Part shown: piece by piece, positions 4,384 to 7,435 of the stretch
How positions within the stretch are numbered: the first letter of the stretch is position 1
Layout of the letters: each line of letters begins with the position of its first letter
Assembly (NCBI GenBank): GCA_048882045.1
Contig: JBHLRZ010000017.1
Coordinates: forward strand, 10,346 to 74,345
Length of the DNA stretch: 64,000 nucleotides
Direction of reading: 5' to 3'
Origin: Candidatus Thorarchaeota archaeon
GTDB lineage: Archaea; Asgardarchaeota; Thorarchaeia; Thorarchaeales; Thorarchaeaceae
Program-made: the position numbers and the translations under genes
Notes under the pieces: generated by a model
The model's database searches: none
What the model saw: only the letters and a program-made list of their open reading frames with translations
Told to the model about the DNA's origin: nothing

Positions 4384-5763
4384 TTGACAGATATTGCTCT
4401 CAGTCTACAGAATGCCATATCTGAAGGAGACTATGCAACAAGTTCGCGTTTCATTGATTGGACGATGAAAAAGGGTGCACTCATCGATCTTGTATCTGGG
4501 CTTGAAGCATTAGAAGAAGCTACATCACACACAACTCTAGAACTGAGAGACCATGTTTTCTACTTCCTTGGAATGTGGGATGTCTATTTCGCAGTACAGA
4601 TGTCATCAACTGATGTGCTGAAGCTCTTGAGCATAAATGGTGTCCAAGAACGAGCTCAGGATTTCATGGTCCACTATATCAATAACCTTCTTGACCGCAA
4701 AGACCCTAGGTTTGACCAATTTTGCGTAAATATCCAGACAGTAAGCAGAGGACATTATGCCATTCTTGTCCCCTCGATATTGGAACAAAGGACAGAAGAA
4801 CTTCTCAACTGTGAAATCCAGTATCTTGATGAACCACCCCGGTTATACTGTACAGCGGACTTATTGAACACATATTATGGGCAGAAAATTGTAGCTGCGA
4901 CTCATGGACAAAGGTCTTTTGATATAGTGGTCGATGAAAAGCAATTTCGGATTATACGAGAGAGTCTTGAATCTACAGGACTTGACATTGAAACAATGCT
5001 TGAGGAAATTGATTCAGATAATTGGGATGAATATGTAAGAAGCAGAAGAAATACTAGAATCAAGAAATATACGAGGGATGAAAAGGAGTCTCATCATGAG
5101 TTAGCAAGTGAACTGGCTGAGCTTCACAGGGTGAAATCTGCTCGCTCCAACATCTATTCTGATGACTTCAATCAGCAAATCGCTGCTCTTCAAACAATAG
5201 ATTCATCGAAGACTCAGCTATGCAATGATGTTCTATCTGACATAGCTATGAATCCTTCGCACTCACTAAGAAAACGGGCTTTGAATCAGCTAGGCAAGTC
5301 AGGTGACTTACTCACGCTTGATTTGCTTGGTGACCTTATGAAAAATGACGCATCGTCTGCAATAAGAAGGGAGGCAGCCCGTGCGTTTTCCACTCTAAGT
5401 TCGAGAGCTGCAGGACTGAAGCAGCTTGCTCCTCTGCCTTCCTCCAAACCACCATCCGTTGATGTTTCCAGGATCAATATTGTACTCAACAATCTGATTA
5501 GTAGGAGAATGCCCGCGACAATGATCGACGAAGCTCTTCATTCGTTCGCTCTCCAAGGTGGTCAAGGATCAGGTGAGCTTCTACTGAGGCTGTTTTCGCA
5601 TCCAGATGAGCGAATACGAGGAAGCATTGTGAGGACTACAAGAACTTTGGATAGAGAGAGTGCGGCTCCAATAGTCCGTGCAGCACTCCAAGACGAGTCA
5701 GTTGAAATTGTCAAGTTGGCTGAGAATGAGCTGGATTCAAGATGGCCTGATGAAGTCTGGTGA
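4384..5763 (+). CDS. HEAT/PBS-lyase repeat-containing protein
   Basis: C-terminal HEAT-like repeats (LRKRALNQLG, DASSAIRREAARAF, HPDERIRGSIV, ALQDESVEIVKLA). Confidence 0.8.
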   Translation: MTDIALSLQNAISEGDYATSSRFIDWTMKKGALIDLVSGLEALEEATSHTTLELRDHVFYFLGMWDVYFAVQMSSTDVLKLLSINGVQERAQDFMVHYINNLLDRKDPRFDQFCVNIQTVSRGHYAILVPSILEQRTEELLNCEIQYLDEPPRLYCTADLLNTYYGQKIVAATHGQRSFDIVVDEKQFRIIRESLESTGLDIETMLEEIDSDNWDEYVRSRRNTRIKKYTRDEKESHHELASELAELHRVKSARSNIYSDDFNQQIAALQTIDSSKTQLCNDVLSDIAMNPSHSLRKRALNQLGKSGDLLTLDLLGDLMKNDASSAIRREAARAFSTLSSRAAGLKQLAPLPSSKPPSVDVSRINIVLNNLISRRMPATMIDEALHSFALQGGQGSGELLLRLFSHPDERIRGSIVRTTRTLDRESAAPIVRAALQDESVEIVKLAENELDSRWPDEVW

Positions 5764-5764
5764 A

Positions 5765-6075
5765 AAGCAAAGGGTGACGAAACCGCCAGTCGCTGTCACT
5801 GTCGTCAATGCATCAATAGAGGTCTTGGGATTGTCATTACGCAGCCAAGTTGGTTTTTTAAACCAGCTGCGTTGTATCGTTGAGATTTCTGATTCTGTGA
5901 TGTCTATTTAGGTCGCTGATGTTCCAGCGATCTCGTCTCTGTTACAAGAGGGCCCTCCGAACACTGTCCCTTCTGTCCGGAGAGCTCGCTCCACGGTCTT
6001 GCGGAAAGGTTGCATTCTACTCTGGAAGTTGACTGTTCGCGGTAGTTGTCTGAAACGCGTGAGGAGGAGGAGAAT
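5765..6075 (-). ncRNA. Candidate ~300-nt structured ncRNA with 5' CUCCUCCUCCUC tract
   Basis: Several stems: 5952-5963/5974-5985 (12 bp, two G-U pairs on the minus strand only), 5839-5845/5866-5872, 5913-5918/5925-5930 and 5774-5778/5795-5799, the last followed by a U-rich tract. No credible ORF. Confidence 0.5.
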
Positions 6076-6101
6076 TTTGGTTGCCAACCATATGGTAAGT
6101 T

Positions 6102-6178
6102 CCGCGAATTTCGCAACATATCAGATATTGATTGCGTATATCGCAATTCCGATATTAAAATATTTGCGATATTCGCAT
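6102..6178. promoter_or_regulatory. Three phased 15-bp palindromic operator boxes TTGCG-W5-CGCAA (Lrp/AsnC-like)
   Basis: CCGCGAATTTCGCAA 6102-6116, TTGCGTATATCGCAA 6132-6146, TTGCGATATTCGCAT 6164-6178; centre-to-centre spacing 30 and 32 bp. Confidence 0.7.
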
Positions 6179-6235
6179 ATAAAGGAAATGGTATAACCGT
6201 CCAAGGAATAGTTCCTAATAGTCTTCATCCCTCAA

Positions 6236-7435
6236 TCATCGACGAATTTTCGATACCAAATAGCCGGGTGCGGCTGCCAAAATTGCACTCCTGACTCCTC
6301 TGAGACCTGCAAGCATCTCTGCAATAACTCTAGATGACTTATCAGAGTTCATGAATGTAGATCCCACAGAGCTAGAACCTGATTCCAAGAACCTCTTCTG
6401 TAGCCACAATCCCCACTTGAGGTCTGAACCAAATGCTTTGGTCCACTCTTTCTCATACTCGGAGAGGGTCTTAGTTGAGAAGTCACTATCTTTGATACAT
6501 CTTGCAGCTGTTTCTGCAGCCTTGAGTCCTCCCATCATCGAATAATGAATTCCTTCCCCTGAGATTGGTGAACAGTGGCATGCGGCATCTCCAGCTAGAA
6601 GAATTCGATTTCCGAACGATGGGCTTACAATTCCTGCTAGTGGCATGAGTGCTGCCTCTTTCTTCGTAATCTCTGCACCTGCGTCCTTTAACTCAGTACT
6701 GATTGGTTGAACATCACTGATAAGATAGTCCAGATAATCGAATGTTCTACGACTGCTCTCTCGGACCTTGTTCACCAGTCCACCTGTACCTACGACCGTT
6801 TCTCGGTCTCTTGGGAAATTCCAGGCGTATCCTCTCGGAGAGAACTCGCTCCCATAGAAGAAATCGTTAGCGCCAGGTAGGGTATCTTTACACTTCATTT
6901 GATACTGAACCGCATACCCTAACTGATTGTTTGGAGGTCTCGGTCGCACAATAGATGACCTCTGGCTTGCTGGATTTGTACCACTAGCATCAATGATGAG
7001 CTCACTTGAGAGGCTGTCACTCGCATTGTCTTTTGTGAAACGAATAGTACACGATTCCTTTGTTGATTCTACCCAGTTGCACTCCGTACTCAGCCATATC
7101 TCTCCTGAATCTTGGGACACCTTCTCTAGTAATGCTTTACCGAAGTCCTCCCTGCTAACGTTTACTCCTACTGGAACTTCGAAATGAACCTCCCTGATGT
7201 TGAGGCTTGGAAACTTCATCCGAATAGTCTCAATGGGATATGCACCTGACATACCTTGAAGGTCGAATTCTTTCAGTGCACGACTTGGAACGTAACCTCC
7301 GCATGCTTTGTTGATTCCCGGAGAGGAGTCTCTGCTTACTAACGTGTAGGAGATCTCCAACTCTTCTAGTCGACGGGCTGCAATGAGACCAGCAGGTCCA
7401 GCACCTATAATGATAACTTCAGTATCAACGGTCAT
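6236..7435 (-). CDS. Geranylgeranyl reductase family FAD-dependent oxidoreductase
   Basis: IIGAGPAG FAD motif, KACGG, PRGYAWNFP, LLAGDAA-x5-ISGEGI. Confidence 0.9.
   Translation of the reverse strand: MTVDTEVIIIGAGPAGLIAARRLEELEISYTLVSRDSSPGINKACGGYVPSRALKEFDLQGMSGAYPIETIRMKFPSLNIREVHFEVPVGVNVSREDFGKALLEKVSQDSGEIWLSTECNWVESTKESCTIRFTKDNASDSLSSELIIDASGTNPASQRSSIVRPRPPNNQLGYAVQYQMKCKDTLPGANDFFYGSEFSPRGYAWNFPRDRETVVGTGGLVNKVRESSRRTFDYLDYLISDVQPISTELKDAGAEITKKEAALMPLAGIVSPSFGNRILLAGDAACHCSPISGEGIHYSMMGGLKAAETAARCIKDSDFSTKTLSEYEKEWTKAFGSDLKWGLWLQKRFLESGSSSVGSTFMNSDKSSRVIAEMLAGLRGVRSAILAAAPGYLVSKIRR

Follow-up and report, generated by a model that had tools for sequence, protein, structure and literature searches.

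What does a gap of 472 nt between two convergent genes encode in a Thorarchaeota genome? The gap (positions 5764-6235) belongs to a stretch of 64,000 nt from Candidatus Thorarchaeota archaeon (contig JBHLRZ010000017.1 of assembly GCA_048882045.1, positions 10,346 to 74,345; hereafter the window), in which a first-pass annotation had placed a minus-strand structured RNA at 5765-6100, with its own promoter and operator boxes and an exposed anti-Shine-Dalgarno tract at its 5' end; the alternative offered was a structured 3' untranslated region (3'UTR) of the adjacent HEAT-repeat gene. Our analysis shows that the RNA gene is real, conserved and single-copy, and that it is folded on the minus strand. 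Judged from the sequences of its relatives, the gap is very probably a stand-alone, self-contained minus-strand gene whose product is a structured RNA of about 390 nt, present in one Thorarchaeota genus only. Asgard archaea are the closest prokaryotic relatives of eukaryotes; to our knowledge almost nothing is known about their regulatory RNAs, and a literature search returned no description of an Asgard regulatory RNA.

Comparative evidence for a minus-strand RNA

BLAST against genomes of the same genus gave collinear matches over an AT-rich promoter and box region, a CU-rich tract and a sharply conserved core at about 6004-5916. A covariance model built from a 14-sequence alignment and a 65-pair structure finds a single copy in this genome (the scans cover G000, the 3.6-Mb assembly that holds the window on its contig 17) and copies in 15 of the 28 genomes of the genus, and no copy was found by the model, run with stricter filters, in the 143 genomes of 51 other genera in our sample of the phylum. 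Five members (G023, G008, G024, G015 and G041) were recovered by the covariance model only, having been missed by BLAST and by a protein profile. The conserved elements of the core are as follows.

5988-5996, minus strand: invariant single-stranded block CCGUGGAGC, 5' of hairpin H1, made up of invariant alignment columns
5950-5987, minus strand: hairpin H1, 14 pairs (5987-5974/5963-5950), of which 13 form here, with a 10-nt loop that carries a conserved GGGAC (5970-5966)
5924-5937, minus strand: 5' arm of the long-range helix H3, GACGAGAUCGCUGG, which is the second of the nearly invariant blocks; the helix is complete here, with all 14 pairs
5776-5789, minus strand: 3' arm of H3, CUGGCGGUUUCGUC, which lies after the stop codon in relatives that bear an open reading frame (ORF; the long forms below)

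Of all helices in the family, H1 has the strongest support. The stem noted earlier at 5985-5974/5963-5952, of 12 bp and with two G-U pairs, is exact and extends to 14 pairs (5987-5950). RNAalifold predicts 12 pairs of H1 from a structure-blind MAFFT alignment of 18 sequences, nine of them changed on both sides, and in the model-fitted alignment of 19 sequences 12 of the 14 pairs are changed on both sides. H3, a helix of 14 bp, is predicted by RNAalifold from 14 sequences; 94% of its cells pair across the family and three pairs are changed on both sides. Taken together, H1 and H3 pair in 96% of the cells of the 14-sequence alignment, compared with 33-47% when the partners are slid, with a covariation score of 0.24 against 0.05-0.08, and the fuller 65-pair model pairs in 89% of cells against 34-45% in the control. 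Over the 19 sequences, 26 pairs are changed on both sides, a count reached by none of 500 shuffles, the slid controls giving 10-14. Three of the five members found by the model only, those for which alignments are shown, have a different H1 stem sequence (CUGGGCAA/UUGCCCAG) and keep the GGGAC loop, a GCACC/GGUGC second hairpin and both arms of H3. Covariation analysis, which the first-pass annotation had proposed, thus reveals a conserved structure in the compensatory changes of H1 and H3.

Two points speak against this structure: the minimum free energy (MFE) of the whole 336 nt on the minus strand is not better than that of shuffles (z = -0.98), and the covariation counts are drawn from related sequences, the larger alignment having been fitted to the covariance model. 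Since the energy of the whole region is ordinary, the case for a structure rests on the comparative data and not on energy, and the earlier description of a structured RNA holds for the conserved, covarying helices and fails for the folding of the region as a whole. The strand is indicated by the G-U pairs, which occupy 72 cells of H1 and H3 against 16 for A-C, an excess that assigns the fold to the minus-strand RNA. The closest relative, on the WOR8 metagenome contig, shares 80% identity with this genome across the whole gap and has indels of 1, 2, 2, 1, 10, 2, 9 and 1 nt, whereas the geranylgeranyl-reductase-like gene upstream has a synonymous divergence (dS) of about 1.75 and 50% third-position differences in the same pair, which indicates that in this clade purifying selection acts on the gap in a non-coding mode. 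Two further hairpins lie within the region.

5910-5933, minus strand: local hairpin (the stem noted earlier at 5913-5930), mutually exclusive with H3; only in this genome, the WOR8 contig and G004
5839-5872, minus strand: inner hairpin CGCAGC...GCUGCG with UGGUU/AACCA; WOR8 shares it with one G-C to A-U double change

The 5930-5913 hairpin is present in the sequence as had been annotated, but it is kept in three genomes only and competes with the conserved H3, to which it may be an alternative fold. The 5872-5839 hairpin was correctly described and is common to WOR8 with the double change given above; the inner helices of the long forms are analogous to it but not the same. The terminal hairpin reported at 5799-5774 with a U-rich tail is likewise present in the sequence, but relatives do not conserve it, and its 3' half serves as the 3' arm of H3.

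Database searches place the RNA in no known family. Rfam 15, which includes the archaeal signal recognition particle (SRP) RNA, ribonuclease P (RNase P) RNA and the C/D and H/ACA small RNAs (sRNAs), gave no match in the window at the gathering score, and ARAGORN found no transfer RNA (tRNA) or transfer-messenger RNA (tmRNA), in agreement with the earlier failure to see SRP or RNase P motifs; the Rfam search suggested at that time therefore attaches no known name to the element. Neither the locus of the second RNA described below nor three homologous loci gave an Rfam match at E <= 0.1. A lax search of 5600-6400 returned a single microRNA match with E = 2.2, which was set aside as chance.

The flanking genes bear on a different explanation, in which the element has no promoter of its own.

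4384-5763, plus strand: HEAT-repeat gene (Pfam HEAT_2), with its stop codon at 5761-5763
6236-7435, minus strand: FAD (flavin adenine dinucleotide)-dependent geranylgeranyl-reductase-like (GGR-like) gene, upstream of the RNA on the same strand

The element lies directly after both stop codons and on the same strand as the GGR-like gene, as would be expected of a structured plus-strand 3'UTR of the HEAT gene, or of a 3' extension of the GGR-like transcript. We regard this explanation as highly improbable. On the plus strand the fold is no better than that of shuffles (z = 0.15), the G-U excess fits the minus strand, a conserved TATA box and operator boxes stand between the GGR-like stop and the RNA, and the upstream gene is a different one or on the other strand in two metagenome contigs. 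Moreover, a HEAT orthologue is found in eight genomes with no RNA within 1.5 kb of it, an absence that is real over that distance because the covariance model was run there with its filters off; in seven of these, only 28-108 nt separate the GGR-like gene from the HEAT gene, the two being directly convergent. The 3'UTR reading was accordingly rejected on the G-U bias, the element's own TATA box and operator boxes, and the HEAT genes without the element. The loci with short spacers include L046, L048, L056, L057, L063 and L064 (genomes G016, G042, G013, G001, G005 and G014), and the eighth genome, G017 (L058), has a spacer of 237 nt with no covariance model match. The comparison of loci indicates that the element is a cassette of about 430-500 bp, present or absent at one fixed site.

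Predicted promoter, operator boxes and a second candidate RNA gene

The control region and the 3' end of the gene are composed of the following features.

6177-6183, minus strand: TATA box CTTTATAT (TTTATAT), conserved, with box 1 directly after it
6164-6178, no strand assigned: box 1 ATGCGAATATCGCAA, abutting the TATA box and conserved in relatives; a likely repressor site
6132-6146, no strand assigned: box 2 TTGCGATATACGCAA, a perfect semi-palindrome, conserved
6102-6116, no strand assigned: box 3 TTGCGAAATTCGCGG, conserved; its 3' half (6108-6102) as RNA can pair with CCGCGAA at 6042-6036
5763-5771, minus strand: U-rich run UUUGCUUUU after H3, overlapping the last base of the HEAT stop codon (5761-5763)

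A CTT(T)ATAT(T) element occupies the same position in all 16 homologous loci inspected, followed by a TTGCGA-type box and by two further boxes downstream. The TATA-like sequence CTTACCATA (about 6099-6091) to which the promoter had been ascribed is not conserved among these loci, the conserved TATA box being CTTTATAT at 6183-6177. With the usual archaeal TATA-to-start distance, transcription probably starts near 6150, about 25 nt downstream of the TATA box, and the CU tract would consequently lie about 80 nt inside the transcript and not at its 5' end as first annotated. A T-rich run follows H3 in most relatives, and the U-run is probably an archaeal termination signal. At the level of sequence, the TATA box, the operator boxes and the U-run after the last helix stand in the same places in all loci. 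A scan for sigma-70 promoters gave no match; this is a bacterial-type model that does not apply to archaea.

The operator motif can be written TTGCG-W5-CGCAA; one of the three boxes at the locus adjoins the TATA box, and the other two fall within the predicted early part of the transcript. If one mismatch is allowed, the motif has 11 sites genome-wide compared with 2 for the reversed control. Five sites examined outside the two RNA loci all fall within ORFs, the only other intergenic site being on contig 8. As the boxes are palindromic, the pairing of UUCGCGG (6108-6102) in box 3 with CCGCGAA (6042-6036) fits either an RNA helix or a repeated DNA site. The conserved TATA box, the three boxes and the covarying helices together support the earlier proposal that a structured RNA is encoded on the minus strand and has a promoter and operator boxes of its own; promoter use, transcript ends, control by a transcription factor and anti-Shine-Dalgarno action are what we infer from these sequence features.

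The intergenic site on contig 8 marks a second RNA gene of similar layout.

109117-109460 of contig 8 of G000, minus strand (L079:1018-1361:-): second candidate small RNA gene, between convergent genes, with its RNA at about L079:1117-1224:-

Here two boxes, TTGCGATTTTCGCAA and TTGTAAATACCACAA, are followed by a TATA box and then by an RNA of about 110 nt, in which a helix of about 10 bp (GAGAGGCACC/GGUGCCUCUC), extended by an outer stem, closes a loop of about 65 nt that carries CUCCCUCCUG and CCUCUCCUCCUCAAG (also given as CCUCUCCCCUCCUCAAG); a UCCUCCUCA motif is thereby shown in a helix-closed loop. The second RNA has an MFE z of -3.77, occurs in 16 of the 28 genomes of the genus with compensatory changes in its stem, and is single-copy by its own covariance model. 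Of the 15 genomes with the present RNA, 14 also have the second one, and 11 genomes have neither. Its covariance model, run over the window with filters off, has a best E of at least 0.69 and no match at 5764-6235, indicating that the two are different families with a common operator type and candidate seed.

An open reading frame in part of the family

In about half of the members the RNA carries an open frame of 100-130 codons, which gene callers annotate in relatives as a hypothetical protein. The locus could accordingly be, at present or until recently, a small-protein gene or a dual-function RNA, with a product of about 115 residues (consensus ..AKPWSELFEPxGPGLKSS..TRSLD..DSSTP..ETTTF..RYIxDIFLLTQxS), helices that are secondary features of a messenger RNA (mRNA), and a truncated copy or pseudogene in this genome. 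Several features of the long forms favour such a gene: frame 0 contains no stop in 10 long-form sequences, the remaining two forward frames having 57-60, a result that none of 2000 column shuffles reaches; indels in the nucleotide alignments are multiples of three, and the position of the stop is conserved; and upstream of the frame stand a GGUGA motif and an ATG. Searching 1.84 billion protein representatives exhaustively with the profile added five small proteins with an intact frame, including P0013, which resembles the N-terminal part of this genome's frame, and 57 codons of the frame are kept here without a frameshift. A few very long proteins with repeated short matches in this search were taken as low-complexity.

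The evolution of the frame points the other way. Codon positions of the long-form ORF differ at 0.26/0.26/0.31 with a median ratio of nonsynonymous to synonymous divergence (dN/dS) of 0.67 at dS of 0.2-0.7, whereas for the HEAT gene in the same genome pairs dS is saturated, the ratio is about 0.15 and the position differences are 0.47/0.34/0.63; the near-equal variation of the codon positions is not the pattern expected of a small-protein family under purifying selection at the protein level. The compensatory changes in H1 force radical changes in the ORF residues (F/S, K/E, L/S), and the peptide motif PWSEL is lost in G008 and G024. AlphaFold2 gave a poor model of a long-form ORF (pLDDT 57, pTM 0.21) with a C-terminal helix only, which is missing from this genome's copy. 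No wider protein family was found among the 1.84 billion representatives, and no Pfam match to the ORFs above threshold; a sub-threshold BTB_2 match (E = 0.039) was dismissed. In this genome the frame survives as a remnant.

5904-6119, minus strand: truncated remnant of the family ORF, 71 codons; its ATG lies just before box 3 and has no Shine-Dalgarno motif

The remnant stops after TRSLEHQRPK, without the C-terminal 45 residues, and has lost the family start region; it scores 30 bits against the ORF-family profile, with the stop codon inside the match. The full-length frame (about 100-130 codons, ending ..ETTTF..RYIxDIFLLTQxS; family P0001-P0013) is absent from this genome, and there is no conserved frame in its clade or in the short forms, the nucleotide blocks being kept in WOR8 and the short forms though the frame is broken or shifted. 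The 5' arm of H3, GACGAGAUCGCUGG, reads TRSLD in the long forms and DEIAG in the short forms and WOR8, and its conservation therefore cannot come from coding. In this genome, the ATG homologous to the first start of the long forms (AUGGU, 6092-6090) opens a 24-codon frame, MVGNQNSPPPH.. (6018-6092, minus strand), and in WOR8 the same ATG opens an unrelated frame of 33 codons.

On balance we consider a small-protein gene unlikely. All members share the promoter with its boxes, an exposed CU tract, H1 with the GGGAC loop and H3, on which grounds we read the locus as a regulated structured RNA gene; as the frame is truncated here and the same blocks are read in other frames elsewhere, the RNA is the common denominator. 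We lean slightly towards the transcript being translated as well in the long-form lineage, which would make it a dual-function RNA there, and doubt that the truncated frame of this genome is also translated. A broader scenario can be put forward only speculatively: the structured regulatory RNA would be ancestral, one lineage keeping a 100-130-codon frame open and others shifting or breaking it, as in the birth or decay of an ORF, and it would belong to a small regulon of CCUCC-displaying RNAs under one factor that binds TTGCG-W5-CGCAA. If true, this would give Asgard archaea a natural example of an ORF born from, or decaying into, a structured small RNA, the gene standing between two uses. 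Strong constraint on the RNA beside an ORF that is open but barely constrained makes the locus a useful case for the study of dual-function RNAs and of the birth and loss of ORFs; for annotation, it means that the hypothetical-protein calls at this locus in Thorarchaeota are at best half the story.

The CU tract, the HEAT neighbour and known systems

The candidate seed of the RNA lies upstream of the core.

6059-6074, minus strand: CU-rich tract UUCUCCUCCUCCUCAC, holding the anti-Shine-Dalgarno core CCUCC

A sequence check agrees with the earlier reading of CUCCUCCUCCUC at 6072-6061 on the minus strand, and a YCUCCUCA-type tract is found in 17 of 20 members. When the predicted transcripts are folded with a partition function, the tract is unpaired with a mean probability of 0.76, compared with 0.43 for whole transcripts, and with one of 0.87 in this genome. 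A 10-13-bp helix that shows compensatory changes encloses the tract in its loop in the short forms, and this helix also takes in the GGUGA motif that is Shine-Dalgarno-like in the long forms; in the long forms the loop around the tract is closed by an AUGUAC/GUACAU helix, and in this genome the loop can be closed by the pairing of UUCGCGG (6108-6102) with CCGCGAA (6042-6036). The use of GGAGG as a ribosome-binding site (RBS) in this genome, as claimed at first, is borne out by a roughly tenfold enrichment: the motif occurs 4-18 nt upstream of the start codon in 6 of 58 crude ORFs and at 0.9% of random positions. An exact GGATCACCTCC on contig 2 may be the 3' end of the 16S ribosomal RNA and was left out of the argument.

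The best overall explanation of these features is, in our judgement, an operator-controlled structured RNA gene that acts in trans through its CU tract, to which we give an even chance. A putative dimeric transcription factor would bind the three TTGCG-W5-CGCAA boxes and control transcription, which would begin about 25 nt after the TATA box and stop at the U-run against the HEAT stop codon. The 5' module of the transcript would display the CU tract, with its CCUCC motif, in an unpaired loop, and the 3' core would consist of H1 with the GGGAC loop, a variable hairpin and the 14-bp H3 closing an inner domain, and would give stability or bind protein. Acting in trans, the RNA would base-pair through its CU tract with mRNAs at their purine-rich Shine-Dalgarno regions. 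Such anti-Shine-Dalgarno regulation is the most likely action of the RNA, though we propose it tentatively, at somewhat less than even confidence.

Several observations weigh against this explanation. Three members, G041, mg28 and mg29, have a degenerate CU tract or none, and in the long forms the tract lies inside the ORF, where it is read as serine codons. The core blocks are conserved more strongly than the tract, so the main function may reside in the core, for example in protein binding. Finally, 13 genomes of the genus do without the element, which is therefore dispensable.

The better conservation of the core would also fit an RNA that works with or on the convergent HEAT neighbour, either by interference between the 3' ends of the two transcripts or through a core bound by the HEAT-repeat protein, which we judge from the sequence data to be decidedly unlikely. 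The HEAT gene is convergent downstream of the element wherever the flank is readable, the GGR-like gene being upstream in most loci, and in these loci the element ends about 10-50 nt from the HEAT stop codon, including the two with a different upstream gene; here the U-run overlaps that codon. Against a functional link, the HEAT gene occurs without the RNA in eight genomes, and the RNA is 60-80% identical between genomes whose HEAT proteins share 27-30% identity, the cassette standing beside both types of HEAT gene; the adjacency may reflect a single old insertion between convergent genes.

The HEAT neighbours in the genus (orthologues L045-L070) are of two very divergent types, both of which adjoin the RNA: type 1 is 45-65% identical to this genome's protein and ends in ..RWPDEVW, and type 2 is 27-30% identical and ends in ..ERWPDSYW. 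On the metagenome contigs L026 and L027, the convergent HEAT gene is kept and the gene upstream of the RNA is not GGR-like, one being a URO-D family gene on the opposite strand and the other encoding a 312-residue protein without a family. On the WOR8 contig (L015, WOR8_10002921), the region homologous to the HEAT 3' end, at about 1835-1970, has an in-frame TAG and no long HEAT frame was found downstream, from which the HEAT gene may be broken or the locus rearranged.

The trans-acting RNA gene proposed here represents a well-delimited, uncatalogued RNA family with comparative support, a promoter and operator layout, a candidate seed and a covarying core, and with the second RNA of the same operator type a transcription-factor-to-sRNA circuit could be rebuilt from sequence. 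Three groups of known systems invite comparison. Dual-function sRNAs such as SR1/SR1P, SgrS/SgrT and AzuCR combine an RNA part and a small ORF on one transcript, with both functions shown in one organism (PMC8501984, PMC8915982; reviewed in PMC12612679). Like these, the long forms would combine a structured RNA and a small ORF in one predicted transcript. Unlike them, the ORF is open in part of the family only, evolves nearly neutrally, is truncated in this genome, and is only putatively translated.

C-rich loops are found in several bacterial sRNAs, among them RsaE/RoxS and the streptococcal csRNAs. The Cuckoo RNAs, or CcsR, of Alphaproteobacteria expose CCUCC-type motifs in unpaired loops with variable closing stems, and often come as several sibling genes under one regulator (PMC4615179). 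The present RNA resembles this group in its CCUCC motif in a loop and in the second gene with the same type of box, which shows UCCUCCUCA. However, the Cuckoo and other C-rich-loop RNAs are bacterial and consist of 2-4 short adjacent hairpins, without a large 3' core or a long-range helix, and even the two local RNAs do not belong to one family, as the covariance model of the second has no match at this locus.

Among archaea, sRNA162 of Methanosarcina mazei is a trans-acting, independently transcribed RNA in which a single-stranded region masks the RBS and start codon of its target (PMC4152357). The present RNA would be similar to it as an archaeal small RNA for which masking of the RBS by a single-stranded region is proposed. 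It has no sequence or structural relation to sRNA162, however, and is about twice as long; and, unlike sRNA162, it has a covarying two-helix core, three operator boxes and an ORF in sister lineages.

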